A stretch of 8,031 bases of DNA, from assembly GCA_030668875.1 (NCBI GenBank), contig DAOVER010000086.1, positions 1 through 8,031 of the forward strand, read 5' to 3'. A model generated the notes under the pieces. It was not told where the DNA came from, did not search any database, and saw nothing but the letters and a program-made list of their open reading frames with translations. Below are positions 1-8,031 of this stretch, piece after piece. This DNA is from Candidatus Heimdallarchaeota archaeon. GTDB lineage: Archaea > Asgardarchaeota > Heimdallarchaeia > Heimdallarchaeales > Heimdallarchaeaceae. The stretch's first letter is position 1. Each line of letters starts with the position of its first letter. A program made the position numbers and the translations under genes.

Positions 1-2
1 AA

Positions 3-2549
3 CCTGAAAATGTTGCGACTTATTTTGCAAACAAAATAATCAAAGATTTTCTTGGAATGGGCTTCTCGATAGATGATACTAAACAGTTTACTACTGGTGA
101 TCTTGAATATAATAGATTCATTGAGTGGCAATATGGAATTCTCAATGAGAAGAACCTTATAACAAAGGGTAGTTATCCCATTCTATGGTGTGTAAATGAT
201 AAGAATGCTGTAGGTGAGGATGATATCAAAGATGGAGATGAACTTAAAGTCGAAGTTAACCAATTTGTGGGTATTAAGTTCCAACTAAATAATGGAATAT
301 TTCTAGTAGCAGCTACTTTGAGACCTGAAACTATTTTCGGAGCAACTAATGTTTGGATTCATCCTGATGCTAAATATGAAGAAATAAAGATTGAAGAAGA
401 ACGATGGATTGTTTCTGAAGAAGCAACCATGAAACTCTTGAAACAAAATCACAGTATAGAAGTTCTAAGGAAATTAAAAGGAAAAGAAATTGTTAATCAA
501 GAAGTTATAGTCCCGATAACTGGGTTAAAAATCCCTATATATCCTGCAACTTTTGTTGATACAGATCATGCAACAGGAGTCGTGTATAGTGTTCCTGCAC
601 ATGCCCCTTATGATTATGCAGCACTAGTAGATTTACAAAAAGATGAAGAAACTATAAGCAATTTTAACCTAAATAGAGATAGATTAGAAGAGATCAAACC
701 AATCTCACTAATTTCTGTCAAAGGATTTGGCGAGTTTCCAGCAGTAGAATTGTGTAATAAACTAGGTGTAAAGAGTCAAAAGGACAGAGAGAAGTTAGAG
801 AAAGCAACTCAAACAATCTACAAAGATGAGTTCTATTCTGGTATAATGAAAGAGAACACTGGAGAATTCAAAGGATTAAAAGTAGAACAAGCCAAGGATG
901 TTGTTGCTGATAAATTAAGAGAAACCAATCTAGCAGCCGAAATATATGAAACATCAAGAAAAGCTTTCTGTCGCTGTGGAGCTCAAATCATAGTAGCTGT
1001 TTTAGAAGAGCAGTATTTCCTAAATTATGGAGATGAAAAATGGAAAGAAACAGCTTTCAAAGCATTAAATTCTATGAGTATTATACCTGAAAAATATCGC
1101 TTAACATTCAAGAATACCTTTGATTGGTTGGATAAGAGACCATGTGTCAGAAAGAGAGGTTTAGGTACTGAGTTTCCTTTAACAAAAGGTGAAGGTTGGA
1201 TTATTGAATCTTTGAGTGATTCTGTCATTTACATGGCATTTTACACAGTTGTTCAAATTATAAGAGAAAATCAAATTAAACCCGAACAATTGAAGCCAGA
1301 GTTATTTGATTTTGTTTTCTTAAACAAGGGAAGTATAGAAAAAGTGATGAAAAGCACAGCCATTTCAGAGGGTTCTATCAATGAAATGAAAGAATCATTT
1401 GAATACTGGTATCCAAATGATTTTCGTCATACAGCAATAACGCACATCTCTAACCATCTCTCATTTACCATCTTCCATCATGTAGCTATTTTCCCAGAAA
1501 AATATTGGATTAAAGCTTTTTCACTAAATGAAAATTTGATTAACAATGGTGAAGCAATGAGCAAAAGTAAAGGAAATGTAATCCCAATTGCACACATACC
1601 AGAGAAATACAGTGTAGATCTGACAAGGTTACATTTGGCTTCTGTTGCAACAGCTGATTCAGTGCTAGATTGGAGAGAATCGGAGGTTAATTATGCTCAA
1701 CAACGATTAAAGAGGTTCTGGGAATATGCAACAAGTGTAACAAGTGTCGAGAATAAGGAGATTAATCTCGCATTTCCTTCGAAAATACTATTATCTTCAG
1801 TTAATTCAAATTTGAAAAAAGCTTTAGATGCAATGGAAAACTACAATGTTCGAGAATTCATTTTGAATGCATTTTTCACAAATCTAAAATCAATAGAGGA
1901 TTATGTAAAATTAACAGAATATATTCCAAAGGAAGAAACAAAAATTGTACTAAGAAAAATCCTTGAGAAAATGATTCTTGTTATGTCGCCGGTTATACCT
2001 CATCTATGTGAAGAACTAAATGAGAGAATGAAAAATGAACAATATATTTCATTAGCTGAAATCCCTGATATAAGTTTTAGTCAGGAGGATAAGTCGTATG
2101 CTTTACAAGCAAAGTATTTGGCTAATCTGCAGGAGGATATTGAACAAGTAATCAAATTAGTGAAATCAACTCCAAGGAAAATTCATGTCTACATTAATGC
2201 TGAATGGAAGAACAAGCTGTATGATTTAGCAAAACGAATTTTCGAAGATGAAGCAGTTAACATTGGCAAAATAATGACAGAAGCTAAACAAGTCTCTGAA
2301 TTAAGTAAATATATGAAAAATGTGTCAGAGATTGCAAAATTAATGATGAAAGATCCAAGCATCTTCAGAATTGAAATGATTAGCTCCTCACTGCAAAAGA
2401 AAGCCGTAGAAGAGTATAAAGATTTTCTGAGTCGAGCCTTCAATGGAGCTGAGATAATCATTCATATGGAAGATCAAAAAGTGAGTTATGATCCGCAAAA
2501 CAAAGCACGAAAATCTCGACCGATGAAACCTGCTTTACTCTTGGAATAA
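3..2549 (+). CDS. leuS: Leucyl-tRNA synthetase, archaeal/eukaryotic type; 5'-partial (N-terminus and HIGH motif lie upstream of the window)
   Basis: The frame is open from position 3 (PENVATYFANKIIKDFLG-MGFSID), so ATG 57 is internal. Motifs: FTTGD..Y..FIEWQ; CP1 editing motifs ATLRPET (312-332) and GVVYSVPAHAPYD (576-614); CRCG; GLGT.FP; WIIESLSDSVIYMAFYT; YWYP..NHL; MSKSKGN (1557-1577); PHLCEEL; and the archaeal LeuRS C-terminus YDPQNKARKSRPMKPALLLE. Several synthetic-site residues are non-canonical (see findings). Confidence 0.93.
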   Translation, partial: PENVATYFANKIIKDFLGMGFSIDDTKQFTTGDLEYNRFIEWQYGILNEKNLITKGSYPILWCVNDKNAVGEDDIKDGDELKVEVNQFVGIKFQLNNGIFLVAATLRPETIFGATNVWIHPDAKYEEIKIEEERWIVSEEATMKLLKQNHSIEVLRKLKGKEIVNQEVIVPITGLKIPIYPATFVDTDHATGVVYSVPAHAPYDYAALVDLQKDEETISNFNLNRDRLEEIKPISLISVKGFGEFPAVELCNKLGVKSQKDREKLEKATQTIYKDEFYSGIMKENTGEFKGLKVEQAKDVVADKLRETNLAAEIYETSRKAFCRCGAQIIVAVLEEQYFLNYGDEKWKETAFKALNSMSIIPEKYRLTFKNTFDWLDKRPCVRKRGLGTEFPLTKGEGWIIESLSDSVIYMAFYTVVQIIRENQIKPEQLKPELFDFVFLNKGSIEKVMKSTAISEGSINEMKESFEYWYPNDFRHTAITHISNHLSFTIFHHVAIFPEKYWIKAFSLNENLINNGEAMSKSKGNVIPIAHIPEKYSVDLTRLHLASVATADSVLDWRESEVNYAQQRLKRFWEYATSVTSVENKEINLAFPSKILLSSVNSNLKKALDAMENYNVREFILNAFFTNLKSIEDYVKLTEYIPKEETKIVLRKILEKMILVMSPVIPHLCEELNERMKNEQYISLAEIPDISFSQEDKSYALQAKYLANLQEDIEQVIKLVKSTPRKIHVYINAEWKNKLYDLAKRIFEDEAVNIGKIMTEAKQVSELSKYMKNVSEIAKLMMKDPSIFRIEMISSSLQKKAVEEYKDFLSRAFNGAEIIIHMEDQKVSYDPQNKARKSRPMKPALLLE

Positions 2550-2555
2550 ATTTGC

Positions 2556-2612
2556 TAGAGAAAATTGAAAAAAAGGAATTTGGAAAGGCATATTTTCAAT
2601 TTTTCTATTTTC
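2556..2612 (+). terminator. Putative leuS terminator: imperfect inverted repeat ending in an oligo-T tract
   Basis: AAAATTGAAAA (2561-2571) pairs perfectly with TTTTCAATTTT (2593-2603). The stem extends to TAGA/TCTA with one bulged G and has a 21-nt loop. The right arm plus TTTTC forms a T-rich run 44-63 nt after the stop codon, as in archaeal terminators. Confidence 0.5.
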
Positions 2613-2750
2613 GCCTCTATCTCCGTTATTCTAATGTTTTATGGCCATATAATATTGCTCAATGGATATATTTTTAAGTAAATCACTTGAGAGAGAGTTT
2701 GCACATAGGGCAGTTACAAAAATAACCCAATATTATATGCAGATATAAAC

Positions 2751-2767
2751 ACAGAAAGGTTAAATAT
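2751..2767 (+). promoter_or_regulatory. Archaeal BRE + TATA box for the DAK2 gene
   Basis: ACAGAAAGG (purine-rich BRE) is directly followed by TTAAATAT, about 60 nt upstream of ATG 2828. Confidence 0.65.
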
Positions 2768-2815
2768 AGCGCAATATTAATAAAATCCGTAACAATACAA
2801 AGCCCTTCTACGCAC

Positions 2816-2823
2816 GAGGATGA
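2816..2823 (+). promoter_or_regulatory. Shine-Dalgarno-like site for the DAK2 gene
   Basis: GAGGATGA, with GAGGA ending 7 nt before ATG 2828. Confidence 0.5.
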
Positions 2824-2827
2824 ACGA

Positions 2828-3511
2828 ATGATGTTACCTAATTCGAAAATCGACGGAATAACTTTAAAGAAAATGATGATTACAGCTGCAAGTAACTTGG
2901 AGCAAACCAAAGAAGAAATTAACTCAATAAATGTATTCCCAATACCTGATGGAGATACTGGTGTTAATTTATTTTTAACAATTAGAACTGTTGTAGAGCA
3001 GTTTAATGAAATTAATCCTTCTTCTATCCAAGAAGCAGCACAACTTATTACAAAAGGGAGTTTTCTAGGAGCTAAAGGCAATTCAGGAGTTATTATCTCC
3101 CAATTTTTCCAAGGTTTTAGCTCTGAAGTTGAAGAACATGAGGAAGTAGGAATTGAAGAATTCGCTAGTGCATTAGAAGCAGGAAGTGAATGGGCATATG
3201 AGGCAGTACTACATCCTACTGAGGGAACTATTTTAACAGTTATCAAAGATACCGCAGAAAAAGCTAAAACTATTGCAGCCAAGGGTGGAGATTGGACAGA
3301 AATGATTACAGAAACTTATGCCACAGCTCTCAAATCATTAGAAAACACTCCAAATCTTTTACCTGTGTTAAAAGAAGCTGGAGTTGTTGATGCTGGAGCA
3401 ATGGGATTTGTTAATGTCTGGTTAGGTTGGTGTTTCCAACTGATGGATAGTTTAGGCATTAAAATTGCTCATATCACAGAAGAATTCGAAAAACTACAAA
3501 ATGGCAACTAA
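2828..3511 (+). CDS. Stand-alone DAK2 (DhaL-like) domain protein of the FakA/YloV fatty-acid-kinase N-terminal subfamily
   Basis: FakA-type signatures: NSINVFPIPDGDTG (2921-2962), GAKGNSGVIISQFF, EGTILTV, TPNLLPVLKEAGVVDAG. At 227 aa it covers only the N-terminal ATP-binding domain of the ~550-aa bacterial FakA. The start could be 2828 or 2831. Confidence 0.9.
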   Translation: MMLPNSKIDGITLKKMMITAASNLEQTKEEINSINVFPIPDGDTGVNLFLTIRTVVEQFNEINPSSIQEAAQLITKGSFLGAKGNSGVIISQFFQGFSSEVEEHEEVGIEEFASALEAGSEWAYEAVLHPTEGTILTVIKDTAEKAKTIAAKGGDWTEMITETYATALKSLENTPNLLPVLKEAGVVDAGAMGFVNVWLGWCFQLMDSLGIKIAHITEEFEKLQNGN

Positions 3512-3569
3512 GTGCCACTTTTCTTTTCTTTTATTTGAAAAAAGAATAGAGCTGTTAAATCGTCTATTC
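3512..3569. terminator. Putative bidirectional terminator between the convergent DAK2 gene and thrS
   Basis: A T-tract TTTTCTTTTCTTTTATTT on + is followed by GAAAAAAGAA (a T-tract on -). Small hairpins: TTCTTTT/AAAAGAA and GAATAGA (3544-3550)/TCTATTC (3563-3569). Confidence 0.55.
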
Positions 3570-5483
3570 ATAATTTTCTATTTGATTTAACACTTGTTTT
3601 GCAAAGTCCTTTGGATTTATTCCAAATTCTACTTTGTTACCTCTTGATCTTACAGCTATTGTTTGTGATTCTATCTCTTTATCTCCAACATTAAGGATAT
3701 ATGGAATCTTTTGCATAGTTGCTTGTCTTATTTTGTATTCCATTCTATCTCCACTGAGATCAGTTTCAGCTCTGATTCCAACCCTTTGTAGATTAGCAAC
3801 TACTTCTTTTGCATATTCAATATGATTATCAGTAATTGGAATGACAATTGCTTGAATTGGACTCAACCAAACAGGTAATTTCCCTGCATAGTGCTCAATT
3901 ATGATTGCTAGAAATCTTTCAGTTGCACCATAAATTGTTCGATGAATAACAAATGGTCTGTGCTTCTGTCCATCTTCTCCTATATAGTTTATATCAAATC
4001 TATCTGGTAGATTGAAATCTACTTGAATTGTGGCAAGTTGCCATTTTCTACCAATTGCATCCTTGACATCAACATCAATTTTTGGACCATAAAATGCTCC
4101 TTCTCCTTCCTTAATTTTGTAATCAATGTCGACTCTTTCCATTGCTCTCATCAGAGATTTGGTTGCATGATCCCAACCTTCATCAGTTCCAATAGCGTAT
4201 TCAGGTTTAGTACTGATGAAGAACTCCCATTCTTTAAATCCGAAAGTTTTGTAGAAATGATTTACCATCTCAACAACACCAACAATTTCATCTTCAAGTT
4301 GATCTGGAAGCATGAATAGATGGGCATCATCTTGGGTAAAGCCCCTTATTCTAAATAATCCGTGTAAAGCACCAGATAATTCATACCGATAGACAGTTCC
4401 CATTTCAGAAAATCTAACAGGCAATTCACGATAAGAGTAGGATCGACGGTTATAAATCATCATATGTCCAGGACAATTCATTGGTTTTACATACCATTTT
4501 TCTCCTCGTAAATCTACAGGAAACATGTGTTCTAAGAAATATTCGGTATGACCACTAGTTTCCCAAACCAGTTCTTTAAAGATATGAGGAGTTTGAATAA
4601 TTTTATAACCAGATTTCTTGTGTTCTTTTTCCCAAAAATCACCCATAACCTTGAGAATTGTTCTCCCTTTGGGGAATATTAAGGGCATTCCTGGTCCCCA
4701 TTCATCTGCAGTATCAAAAAGATCAAGTTGCTTTCCAAGTACTCTATGATCTCTTTTCTTTGCTTCTTCAAGCATTTTCAAGTGCTTCTTGAGTTTTTTC
4801 TCCGAAGTAAAAGCTACACCATATACTCTTTGTAGTGATTCGCGCTCTGCATCTCCTCTCCAAAATGCTGAAGAAACATGCAGTATTTTGATTGCTTTTA
4901 CCTTACTGGAACTTGGGATGTGGGGTCCTCTACACAAATCTTTGAAATGTCCTTGATCATGAGAATAGAAAGACATTATTGCTTCTTCAGATTCTTTGAG
5001 AATTTCAACTTTGAATTTGTTCTTCTCTTCAGTCTCATAATACTTAATAGCTTCTTCTTTTGTAATTTCTTCCCTTAGAAAAGGAGCATCAGCTGCAATA
5101 ACTTCTTCAACCTTTTGCTGTATTTTTTCTAAATCCTCTTGAGTAAATGGTTCGTTAATATAGAAATCATAGTAAAAACCAACTGGATCAATACTTGGTC
5201 CTATCGTTGGACGGGCTTCTGGAAATAAATCAACAACAGCACCAGCCATGATATGAGCAGCACTATGATTAAGAACATGGAGGGATTCCTCTGACTTGTC
5301 TGTTAATATCTCAAGTTTGTCATTTTCCTTGATTTTCTTATTCAAATCAACAAGTCTTCCATTCATCTTTGCTGCAATCGCAGCTTCTGCTAACCGTGGG
5401 CTAATTTGTTGTGCCACATCATATACAGTTGCACCCTTTGGTACGTCAATTTTACTACCATCTGGTAGCTCTACTTTAACCAT
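3564..5483 (-). CDS. thrS: Threonyl-tRNA synthetase, bacterial type (TGS/N1 + N2 editing + class II catalytic + anticodon-binding domains)
   Basis: N-terminal TGS domain (VELPDGS); editing motifs HSAAH (H73/H77) and DLCRGPH; RDHRVLG; Zn ligands in KPMNCPGH, FTQDDAH and VIHR; GEGAFYGPKID; TIQVDFNLPDRF; C-terminal anticodon domain (KIRQATMQKIPY). 639 aa, complete. Confidence 0.97.
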   Translation of the reverse strand: MVKVELPDGSKIDVPKGATVYDVAQQISPRLAEAAIAAKMNGRLVDLNKKIKENDKLEILTDKSEESLHVLNHSAAHIMAGAVVDLFPEARPTIGPSIDPVGFYYDFYINEPFTQEDLEKIQQKVEEVIAADAPFLREEITKEEAIKYYETEEKNKFKVEILKESEEAIMSFYSHDQGHFKDLCRGPHIPSSSKVKAIKILHVSSAFWRGDAERESLQRVYGVAFTSEKKLKKHLKMLEEAKKRDHRVLGKQLDLFDTADEWGPGMPLIFPKGRTILKVMGDFWEKEHKKSGYKIIQTPHIFKELVWETSGHTEYFLEHMFPVDLRGEKWYVKPMNCPGHMMIYNRRSYSYRELPVRFSEMGTVYRYELSGALHGLFRIRGFTQDDAHLFMLPDQLEDEIVGVVEMVNHFYKTFGFKEWEFFISTKPEYAIGTDEGWDHATKSLMRAMERVDIDYKIKEGEGAFYGPKIDVDVKDAIGRKWQLATIQVDFNLPDRFDINYIGEDGQKHRPFVIHRTIYGATERFLAIIIEHYAGKLPVWLSPIQAIVIPITDNHIEYAKEVVANLQRVGIRAETDLSGDRMEYKIRQATMQKIPYILNVGDKEIESQTIAVRSRGNKVEFGINPKDFAKQVLNQIENYE

Positions 5484-5487
5484 TTTA

Positions 5488-5492
5488 TCACC
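5488..5492 (-). promoter_or_regulatory. Archaeal-type Shine-Dalgarno GGTGA for thrS
   Basis: The minus strand reads GGTGA-TAAA-ATG. GGTGA is complementary to the UCACC of the archaeal 16S 3' end. Confidence 0.7.
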
Positions 5493-5537
5493 AAAAAATT
5501 ATTTCTTAAGAGGATAAAAATCATACTTATCTGTAGG

Positions 5538-5544
5538 TTATAAA
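5538..5544 (-). promoter_or_regulatory. Candidate TATA box for thrS
   Basis: TTTATAA on the minus strand, about 55 nt upstream of the start codon. There is no convincing BRE, and an alternative TTTAAATA lies at 5609-5616. Confidence 0.35.
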
Positions 5545-5643
5545 CAAAACCATCAGGAAAGTGTTTCACATTCACCTAACATTATCCTCAAGATTCTTAT
5601 CAATAATATATTTAAAAAAGTTATTACTTATTCATTTCATAAT

Positions 5644-5657
5644 CACAAGATTTAATA
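5644..5657 (+). promoter_or_regulatory. Candidate BRE + TATA box for the MFS gene
   Basis: CACAAGA is followed by TTTAATA (5651-5657), about 78 nt upstream of ATG 5735. Confidence 0.45.
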
Positions 5658-5665
5658 CTCGTTCA

Positions 5666-5689
5666 GATTTTTCTTGAAACAGAAAAATC
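5666..5689. repeat. Perfect 9-bp inverted repeat (candidate operator or 5'-UTR hairpin)
   Basis: GATTTTTCT-tgaaac-AGAAAAATC, read directly from the sequence. Confidence 0.6.
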
Positions 5690-5734
5690 CATAATGCATT
5701 TAAATTCAGTTTTGGATAAGGGGTAACAGATAAA

Positions 5735-7141
5735 ATGCAAAGAAAACACTTCACAGGGCTCTCAGTTTTTCAGATGATGGCTATGTTTAGAAGAGGAATT
5801 TTCTACTTTTTCTTGAGCATTTATCTGTATGAGTTTCTAGGAGTCTCAACTACAGAGATGACGCTCTTTGCAACCCTACCAATGATTGCTAATATTGTTG
5901 CACAATCAGCTCTATGGGGGCGAATATCAGACAAATTCAAAAAACGTAGACTGTTAATCATTTTTGGTGAGCTTTTTGCTGCAATAGGTTATTTAATTAT
6001 ATTCTGGATACACAATTCTGTCAATAAGGAGAAGGTTGGAGTTGGACATATTGGAGACGTGCTTTTCTCCCAATCTGAGATACTATTACATTATTCGGAT
6101 CTAGCATCATCAGAAATCCAAAGCATACTTCGAATGTCAGCTTATACTATCATAATTGGTTTTACCATTGTTGAAGCTGGTTGGAGTAGCAGCAACCTTG
6201 GATGGTCAACACTAATAGCTGATTTAACAAAGGAATCTGAAAGAAGCAAAGTGATGGGATTATTACAGTTCATCGGAGGGATAGGGAACATTTTGGGAGT
6301 AACTGCGTGTGGATTTCTTTATCAGAATGGGTTAGGATTCTGGAATGGGAATCTGTTCTATGTTTCGTCTAGCATAATGATCTTCAGCTTATTTGCCCTT
6401 CTCATGATTCCAGAGTCGTATGCTGATTTAAAGAATGAATCGAAGGTAGATAAAAGGAACGATAAGAATGATAATGCCGAGACTAAGCCAAGAGTTGATG
6501 ATAGCACGAGTAGGGATTGGGCACGGAAGTTATTCATTTGGTTAATAATAGTCTTGGCAATTGTGAATATAGGTGGAAATAGTATTGGACAACTAATTCA
6601 GATATATGTAAGATTACCAGACACGTTTAATTCCACGGATGTTATAGTAGCACAATTAAGAAACATAAGCAGTATAGCTATGATAATTGGCGGACTAGTA
6701 ATTGGTTTGCTAGCGAAACGTTTTGGAGAAGTAAAGATTCTTTTAGTAGGATTTTTAGTACTTTTCATTGGAACAATATCCTTACCTTTTGCACCTCACA
6801 TCACCATATTCTTCATTTACATGGCGCTGAAAGGAACTTCAAGAGTTTGGATACAGACAACTTCATACGCAATGGTCAATAAAATAGTACCTCTTGAGAA
6901 AAGAGGGAAGATGATGGGATACTATAATTCAGCGTTTTATTTATCTTGGGGATTAGGAGGAACGATGATAACAGGTCCAATTGCAGATACTCTAATAAAT
7001 CAAAACTATAGCGTATCATTTTCATATGAAATTACTTTTTACGTAGCCGCATTTTTAGTATTGGTAGGAATACTGATCTATGTGTTAAAACGTCCAAACG
7101 ATTTTAAGCTATTAGCAGAAGCAACAAATGCAAAAAGATAG
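5735..7141 (+). CDS. Major facilitator superfamily transporter, substrate unknown
   Basis: About 12 hydrophobic segments in a 6+6 arrangement. Motif A WGRISDKFKKRR follows TM2 and its repeat GLLAKRFGEVK follows TM8. Other features: IADLTKESERSKVMG after TM4, VPLEKRGKMMG after TM10, and a charged central loop. Confidence 0.92.
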   Translation: MQRKHFTGLSVFQMMAMFRRGIFYFFLSIYLYEFLGVSTTEMTLFATLPMIANIVAQSALWGRISDKFKKRRLLIIFGELFAAIGYLIIFWIHNSVNKEKVGVGHIGDVLFSQSEILLHYSDLASSEIQSILRMSAYTIIIGFTIVEAGWSSSNLGWSTLIADLTKESERSKVMGLLQFIGGIGNILGVTACGFLYQNGLGFWNGNLFYVSSSIMIFSLFALLMIPESYADLKNESKVDKRNDKNDNAETKPRVDDSTSRDWARKLFIWLIIVLAIVNIGGNSIGQLIQIYVRLPDTFNSTDVIVAQLRNISSIAMIIGGLVIGLLAKRFGEVKILLVGFLVLFIGTISLPFAPHITIFFIYMALKGTSRVWIQTTSYAMVNKIVPLEKRGKMMGYYNSAFYLSWGLGGTMITGPIADTLINQNYSVSFSYEITFYVAAFLVLVGILIYVLKRPNDFKLLAEATNAKR

Positions 7142-7149
7142 CTTGTTTT

Positions 7150-8031
7150 TTATTCAATGAAGCTATAATCCTCAATCTTTATTCCTTTTTGGCGAACCAT
7201 ACTTTGCATCAATTCGTCTCCTTCAGCTTTCAGAATTCTAACTGGAATATCTGGAAAACGAGGGTGATTTGTTATTACTCTTGGTTTGAAGTTAACAATA
7301 GCCCTTATATCGTCAAGTAGAGATTTAAGAGAAGCTTGTGTCCCAGCATATTTTGATCCTGCACACAAAATGATTACCTTAGCACTATCCCAAGGATTTG
7401 GAAGTAATCCAATTATGCCTGTTAGTAAACCCAAATCTGAATGTTCGCTATATGTCTCATTTGTGAAAGAGCTGTAAATATTCTTGCTTTGAGGTGACAA
7501 AAAACGTATTGGAAGGCTATCACCATATAAATTCATAATCTCCGAAGTTATTTTATTTACTGCCCCTGAACCTATCACTAGCATATTTTCAGCTTTTGCA
7601 GGTCCTGTCTGATAATCTAATAACGATTCAATTAGTATCTTATCTATTGGAATTTTCTTAATTTTGTGTGCCCAATATGTAAACATTTGTGTTATTTCAG
7701 GAGTATAAAGAGCATCAATTGTACTTGCTGCATCTGTCATCCATGAACCAAAGACCACATTCAGTTGGAAACTATCACCAAGCATTAAACAATCTGGAAA
7801 ATCGTTCCAAGTATATTGAAAATCAAAACTAAGTTTTGCAGGCCACTCAATATCTTCATATTCAAGGAGTAGATTTCTGAAGAATTCACTAGAAAGAAGT
7901 TCATGATTTGGTGAGTAAAAGACTCTATTTGAGCTCCCCAGTTTAACTTCTTGTCTCTTAATCAGTTGTAACTCCGTAAGTCTGTCGAGGATATTGTATA
8001 TAGTGCTTCTGTTTGTTATTGGTAAACGATT
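7150..8031 (-). CDS. Putative transcriptional regulator: winged HTH plus a C-terminal S-layer-C-like alpha/beta domain; 5'-partial, at least 293 aa
   Basis: I translated the frame upstream of ATG 7785 and found no stop up to the window edge: NRLPITNRSTIYNILDRLTELQLIKRQEVKLGSSNRVFYS (recognition helix plus wing). The C-terminal part has NMLVIGSGAVNKIT..LPIRF..IYS..TY..GII..NPW..VIILCAGSKYAGT, which resembles the NLILIGGP..N motif family of S-layer C-terminal-like domains. There is no TM segment in the visible part. Confidence 0.75.
   Translation of the reverse strand, partial: NRLPITNRSTIYNILDRLTELQLIKRQEVKLGSSNRVFYSPNHELLSSEFFRNLLLEYEDIEWPAKLSFDFQYTWNDFPDCLMLGDSFQLNVVFGSWMTDAASTIDALYTPEITQMFTYWAHKIKKIPIDKILIESLLDYQTGPAKAENMLVIGSGAVNKITSEIMNLYGDSLPIRFLSPQSKNIYSSFTNETYSEHSDLGLLTGIIGLLPNPWDSAKVIILCAGSKYAGTQASLKSLLDDIRAIVNFKPRVITNHPRFPDIPVRILKAEGDELMQSMVRQKGIKIEDYSFIE

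Follow-up and report, generated by a model that had tools for sequence, protein, structure and literature searches.

The 8,031-nt window analysed here (positions 1 to 8,031 of the forward strand of contig DAOVER010000086.1, assembly GCA_030668875.1, Candidatus Heimdallarchaeota archaeon) opens within leuS, a gene for a leucyl-tRNA synthetase (LeuRS) whose product differs from the P. horikoshii enzyme in four motifs of the catalytic core. The question raised by this locus is whether such a protein is a re-wired but active LeuRS, a synthetase of altered amino acid specificity, or a tRNA-binding pseudo-synthetase that only edits, the three options offered in an earlier note on this DNA. The open reading frame (ORF) is very probably the single housekeeping LeuRS of a Heimdallarchaeaceae archaeon and a member of an old LeuRS subfamily found in several phyla, referred to below as form A. 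Leucine would be activated with ATP in the Rossmann-fold site and then moved to tRNA-Leu, with proofreading in connective peptide 1 (CP1), as in any archaeal-type LeuRS (LeuRS-A); form A would do so with GEDD in place of (G/M)DHD and with RHTAIxHISNHL in place of SGKDLxxNHL. The analysis established that the gene is intact and single copy, that the motifs occur throughout the subfamily, that pocket and editing residues are conserved, and that selection on the gene is purifying.

The reading frame at 3..2549 (plus strand) is open from its first base and encodes 848 residues within the window, corresponding to the last 848 codons and the stop codon of a 975-codon gene. The window start lies inside leuS and opens contig C51 of a 3.23-Mb genome (99 contigs, 92% complete). 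The final 141 nt of a second contig, C46, are identical to positions 1..141 of the window, and this exact overlap marks an assembly break inside leuS, not a truncation of the gene. The piece on C46 encodes MTFLDE...HLGHARTY and supplies codons 1-127, with an ATG start and the canonical HLGH of the class I signature (AFHLGHARTY), so that the upstream HIGH region that the earlier note had wished to see was retrieved; 46 amino acids are common to this piece and the window protein at 100% identity. Merging the two contigs yielded a leuS of 2928 nt and 975 codons, with a 975-aa product that aligns gap-free with 975-aa orthologues at 90% identity. On this overlap and alignment, leuS is intact, and the organism is an Asgard archaeon. 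The ORF had been described as intact from the window; it is complete, at 975 codons, once C46 has been joined to it.

Family assignment was made by profile searches with the window's 848-aa part alone, which scored 905.8 bits against NF008957 (cut-off 677) and 784.1 bits against TIGR00395 (cut-off 648.5), compared with just 115 bits against the bacterial LeuRS model TIGR00396. Pfam matches were those expected (class Ia core, LeuRS editing domain, and anticodon-binding domain), and homologues with 89-90% identity carry the NCBI name leucine--tRNA ligase, Candidatus Heimdallarchaeaceae. The closest orthologues, from metagenome-assembled genomes of Heimdallarchaeaceae (the NCBI-named P0003, together with P0002 and P0006), are 975 aa long, align gap-free at 89-90% identity, and carry identical SIDDTK, GEDD, RHTAITHISNHL, and AMSKS motifs; these sister species showed no difference of substance. 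P. horikoshii LeuRS (1WZ2, with tRNA-Leu, and 1WKB) aligned end to end with the same full-length domain order, including CP1 and the C-terminal domain (E = 1.5e-177), and the two proteins are alike in the N-terminal HxGHARTY and PMA(F/W)HITG. The archaeal C-terminal tRNA-Leu-binding domain is present, and the alignment to 1WZ2 reaches the last residue of both proteins, where the tail RPMKPALLLE (2517..2546, plus strand) lies opposite MPLKPAIFIE. On these matches, fold membership is regarded as settled from sequence.

Counterparts of the motifs were located by HMMER alignment to P. horikoshii LeuRS (1WZ2/1WKB), and human residues are given in native numbering from chain A of 9W01. All of the motif strings quoted in the earlier note were found in place, on the plus strand. 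SIDDTK (full-length aa 149-154; 66..83) lies opposite P. horikoshii SVDWSR, with Asp replacing Trp. GEDD of the CP core (aa 198-201; 213..224) lies opposite P. horikoshii GDHD and human M249-D250-H251-D252 and places Asp at the His251 position. The third motif, RHTAITHISNHL (aa 602-613; 1425..1460), lies opposite P. horikoshii RCSGKDLIPNHL and human R671-VSGKDLVPNHL; it spans human R671 to L682, with G674-K675-D676-L677 replaced by A-I-T-H. AMSKS in the KMSKS loop (aa 645-649; 1554..1568) has Ala in place of human Lys716 and keeps the M, the first S, the second (catalytic) Lys, and the final S. P. horikoshii itself has KMSKS and, with its SVDWSR, GDHD, and RCSGKDLIPNHL, belongs to a different LeuRS-A subfamily.

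The description of these as four normally conserved motifs deviating together took P. horikoshii as its sole norm, and conservation across homologues did not bear it out. GEDD and RHTA[IV]xHI[ST]NHL were present in 120/120 of the nearest database homologues, at identities from 90% down to 43%, under names that include Heimdall-, Loki-, Thor-, Hod-, Kari-, Sigyn-, and Odinarchaeota, Asgardarchaeum, and Bathyarchaeia. These two motifs likewise define a group among the library-wide representatives at 50% identity, with an Aenigmarchaeote, a member of the Diapherotrites, and Thermogladius (a crenarchaeon) belonging to it. Contigs were also scanned with the form-A alignment (generic KM[SG]KS[KL]GNV); the matches listed were mostly bacterial LeuRS with ~10 archaeal loci, and further form-A members among them came from Desulfurococcales, Thermosphaera, Njordarchaeales, Methanomicrobia, Thermoplasmata, and Nitrososphaerota. 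At the Trp position of S.DW.R, just 93 of ~120 LeuRS-A representatives have W; within the 120 nearest homologues this Trp was lost without exception in those from Heimdall, Loki, Thor, and Hod lineages and kept in the more distant Bathy/Odin-type proteins. By these counts, three of the four odd motifs are what normally characterises a large archaeal LeuRS subfamily, and the gene appears remodelled because the reference enzyme belongs to another one. Across archaeal LeuRSs, the variants are common.

Form A formed one clade in an exploratory tree (FastTree), with the window protein deep inside it on a short branch. Two further forms were distinguished: form B, with (G/M)DHD and SGKDLxxNHL (P. 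horikoshii, eukaryotes, and thaumarchaeal variants), and form C, with SETD, GGKEHxTVHFP, and KISKS (for example, Woesearchaeota). The window gene lacks the pocket His of (G/M)DHD and the SGKDLxxNHL motif of form B, having GEDD and RHTAITHISNHL instead, and falls in the form-A clade. A separate observation concerns the form-A LeuRSs of Desulfurococcaceae (P0123, P0276-P0344, and L062), which have SEPSDAPYDY, not SVPAHAPYDY, in the second editing motif and no precomputed PF13603 match; yet the Thermogladius copy is the only LeuRS of a complete genome.

The fourth motif is distributed differently. Of ~120 LeuRS-A representatives, 106 have K at the first position of KMSKS; replacements seen elsewhere among LeuRS-A representatives are PMHKS, TMHKS, AMSKS, PMSKS, and GMHKS, and the T. 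thermophilus enzyme also lacks this Lys (VMSKS in the PDB 1H3N sequence). AMSKS is narrow and confined to subclades of Heimdallarchaeaceae: in a maximum-likelihood tree of 33 rows, the outgroups have KMSKS, the Heimdall/Loki group KMGKS, and two Heimdallarchaeaceae subclades A/S-MSKS (14 of 33 rows, the window gene among them). Replacement of the first KMSKS Lys by Ala is, on the alignments, the sole recent and local change in the window protein, at a position with which other active LeuRSs dispense. Within Heimdallarchaeaceae the loop toggles between Q-K-M-G-K-S and E-A-M-S-K-S, three residues changing jointly; the at least three state changes on the tree would mean either that lineages changed in parallel or that they recombined locally.

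Copy number was examined in the genome itself and in its relatives. In the own genome (92% complete), the window leuS is the only locus above the TIGR00395 cut-off, no locus exceeds the cut-off of the bacterial model TIGR00396, and tblastn with form-B LeuRS proteins found no further LeuRS; the search for a second leuS urged by the earlier note thus returned none of archaeal or bacterial type. Weaker class Ia matches in this genome were IleRS, ValRS, CysRS, and MetRS, and tRNA-Leu genes are present with anticodons GAG, CAG, and TAG. LeuRS was found in 49 of 50 Heimdallarchaeia genomes that are at least 85% complete, each having one form only. All 20 Heimdallarchaeaceae genomes searched, including the own genome, carry form A, and none has a second Heimdall-type LeuRS. 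Two of these 20 are closed, single-contig genomes (SIDDTR, GEDD, RHTAIAHISNHL, and KMGKS), and one genome with AMSKS is 95% complete. Form A is also the only LeuRS, with no bacterial-type copy, in a closed Hod-type genome and in the complete 1.33-Mb chromosome of Thermogladius, which alone provides the crenarchaeal sole-copy evidence. With no other LeuRS beside it in closed genomes from several phyla, form A would have to charge tRNA-Leu, and we infer leucylation of normal efficiency for the window protein because leuS is single copy in its own genome and in closed related genomes.

One genome of the same genus (G038) has a second LeuRS (L052, C14:32200-35800) of form C that is DPANN-like in its SETD, GGKEHQSVHFP, and KLSKS motifs. 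It was considered as evidence of paralogy and rejected, since it is DPANN-like and its contig (37.8 kb) is a separate one in a bin that is 8% contaminated; this copy is probably foreign DNA, not a paralogue.

Residues that contact substrates were compared with human cytosolic LeuRS (6LPF, 6KQY, and 9W01). In the human complex with the adenylate analogue LeuAMS, the leucine pocket is formed by Tyr52, Tyr54, Leu594, and Ser597 (PMC7229842). Aligned with chain A of 9W01, the full-length protein keeps equivalents of all four, the tyrosines in PYPY and the other two in ESLSDS (1206..1223, plus strand), and also those of the HIGH-motif residues His60 and His63. Counterparts of the editing residues Thr293, Thr298, and Asp399 are likewise conserved. 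The threonine-rich CP1 motif ATLRPET (312..332, plus strand) matches human Thr293/Thr298 (PMC7229842), and the second CP1 motif, GVVYSVPAHAPYD (576..614, plus strand), contains VPAHAPYD with the conserved Asp and was placed by the alignments and by a PF13603 match (LeuRS editing domain, window-protein aa 91-206). CP1 is inserted at the archaeal position, collinear with 1WZ2, and the claim of canonical CP1 motifs and a canonical C-terminal domain held through to the last residue of that alignment. With these residues identical, the differences from the human enzyme are His251 to Asp, G674-K675-D676-L677 to A-I-T-H, and Lys716 to Ala, and the window protein lacks the insertions LSD1, LSD2, and UNE-L, which are specific to eukaryotes.

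The ratio of nonsynonymous to synonymous substitution rates (dN/dS) was 0.09-0.11 against the three closest orthologues (dS ~0.48, unsaturated), which shows leuS to be under purifying selection. The two Rossmann halves gave values of 0.04-0.12, below every other domain in two of the three comparisons and equal to or lower than CP1 (0.09-0.13) overall. The segment made up of Rossmann-C plus stem-contact (SC) fold, which carries the KMSKS loop, had the lowest or near-lowest values (0.04-0.07).

Several observations weigh against a wholly ordinary LeuRS. Form A has Asp at the position of human His251, a CP-core residue that lies <4 Å from bound leucine and 2.6 Å from Tyr54, and the substitution H251D abolishes amino acid activation in the human enzyme (PMC7229842). 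Form A is also without the Gly-Lys-Asp of SGKDL, so that its pocket is truly unlike those in the two LeuRS-A structures that have been solved, and no form-A enzyme with a biochemical characterisation was found. In the AMSKS clade of the window gene, the Arg located two positions upstream of the loop is additionally lost (NNGEAMSKS vs REGQKMGKS), and AMSKS together with this loss may have a kinetic effect. Lastly, at 92% completeness a sole copy in the own genome is no proof, and the argument from copy number rests on the relatives and the closed genomes.

The alternative that best withstands these data, although an improbable one, is an active LeuRS with altered kinetics, in which the AMSKS loop and the lost Arg would weaken binding of ATP or of the transition state, or handling of the tRNA 3'-end. 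A subclade of Heimdallarchaeaceae would then leucylate more slowly or under different regulation, with partial compensation elsewhere in the protein. The coupled, three-residue exchange of QKMGKS and EAMSKS, with its repeated state changes, hints at selection on the loop, and the clade of the window gene replaces the preceding Arg as well. However, T. thermophilus LeuRS has VMSKS, KMSKS of the human enzyme does not touch the adenylate analogue directly in the LeuAMS complex (PMC7229842), each of the 14 A/S-MSKS proteins in the tree is the sole Heimdall-type copy of its genome, and the segment bearing the loop is among the most constrained of the protein.

Far less credible is a pseudo-synthetase that binds tRNA and edits in trans without aminoacylation, in spirit like LeuRS-I of Sulfolobaceae. 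Its appeal is that several of the substrate-contacting positions of type-B enzymes differ (His251 to Asp, GKD to AIT, and the first Lys to Ala) next to perfect CP1 motifs. Yet no other LeuRS of any type was found in the own genome or in relatives, closed genomes included; HIGH, the second KMSKS Lys, and the leucine pocket are intact; and the catalytic core is constrained at least as much as CP1, which disfavours an editing-only protein because loss of aminoacylation would give the reverse dN/dS pattern. LeuRS-I is described in PMC9437257, which summarises Weitzel et al. 2020, as an extra copy that accompanies a functional LeuRS; its CP1 is disrupted, its acidic C-terminal domain has diverged, and it makes Leu-AMP but does not charge tRNA. 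LeuRS-I and the window protein are both archaeal-type LeuRS homologues with unusual motifs, but the window gene is an only copy whose CP1 and C-terminus are canonical, a contrast that the earlier note had drawn correctly.

A synthetase of altered amino acid specificity is just as hard to credit. In its favour, the window protein has Asp for human His251, the CP-core residue that adjoins the bound leucine. Against it, all four human leucine-pocket residues are conserved, many archaeal lineages carry this Asp in their only LeuRS, the editing site by which near-cognate amino acids are cleared is canonical, and tRNA-Leu genes are present with no alternative enzyme to charge them. With a sole leuS and variants that are common, neither altered specificity nor loss of aminoacylation survived, so far as sequence can decide. 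The first of the three original options, an active LeuRS, would be essentially right; what does not stand is its restriction to this gene or to a narrow lineage, as the arrangement belongs to a subfamily of several phyla.

The other genes of the window were annotated as follows. A stand-alone DAK2-domain protein of 227 aa (PF02734, 133 bits) is encoded at 2828-3511 on the plus strand, with no adjacent DAK1 or other partner domain within the window. Convergent with it, at 3564-5483 on the minus strand, is a gene for a 639-aa ThrRS of bacterial/eukaryotic architecture (TGS, tRNA_SAD editing domain, class II core, and HGTP anticodon domain), assigned from Pfam matches. The ORF at 7150-8031 (minus strand) has at least 293 aa, runs past the window end, and had no Pfam match at E ≤ 0.001.

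Returning to the housekeeping form-A LeuRS, its pocket was compared with that of bacterial-type enzymes. In addition to Asp at the human His251 position, form A has His at the human Leu677 position, and this Asp/His arrangement is, by its distribution, a trait of the whole subfamily and not of the window gene. The resulting A-I-x-H-x-x-x-H-L register of RHTAITHISNHL resembles GGIEHAxxHL of bacterial LeuRS, as read from haloarchaeal bacterial-type LeuRS and from PDB sequences (6Q89/1H3N). An I-x-H-x-x-x-H-L register (GGIEHAxxHLLY) is common to the bacterial-type enzymes of T. thermophilus (1H3N/2V0C) and N. gonorrhoeae (6Q89) and to haloarchaeal LeuRS-B, and T. thermophilus shares with the window protein the absence of the first KMSKS Lys. 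Bacterial LeuRS differs from the window protein in having Glu where the latter has Thr, CP1 at another site, and another C-terminal domain. Across 118 representatives, the two His positions were never occupied together (one in 75, the other in 38, and neither in 5), although these representatives fall into few clades and so stand for a small number of independent events. The mutual exclusion fits the idea that the His was relocated.

The distribution of forms among Heimdallarchaeia bears on the same idea. These genomes (G001-G059) have one LeuRS each, of two deeply different forms (L023-L030 and L054-L057 vs L006-L021 and L050-L061): form A, 50-90% identical to the query, and the eukaryote/P. 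horikoshii-like form B, at 33-37%. Families differ in which form they carry, as do even the members of one genus (g13), with form A in 11 genomes and form B in 3, which suggests that one form has repeatedly displaced the other. It is possible, though rather less likely than not, that archaeal LeuRS comprises at least two to three old, interchangeable active-site designs, that form A is one in which the His has been relocated, and that one design has repeatedly replaced another within Heimdallarchaeia. No description of the split between form A and form B was found in the searchable literature, and AARS Online handles LeuRS-A as a single family. A sister relation between the form-B LeuRS of Heimdall archaea and eukaryotic LeuRS was not seen in the exploratory FastTree tree.

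The window gene is the expected housekeeping LeuRS, is already so annotated in sister genomes, and matters little by itself. It illustrates that apparent deviations from a single crystal-structure reference can merely be the signature of another subfamily. Of wider consequence is that a large, uncharacterised LeuRS-A subfamily naturally bears the equivalent of the H251D residue that inactivates the human enzyme, which suggests that form A may be an alternative, bacterial-like build of the leucine/adenylate pocket on an archaeal scaffold. This would matter for how widely the human and P. horikoshii structures apply, as when orthogonal pairs or inhibitors are designed. Heimdallarchaeia are the closest archaeal relatives of eukaryotes. 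The finding would also bear on which form of LeuRS was carried by the archaeal ancestor of eukaryotes.

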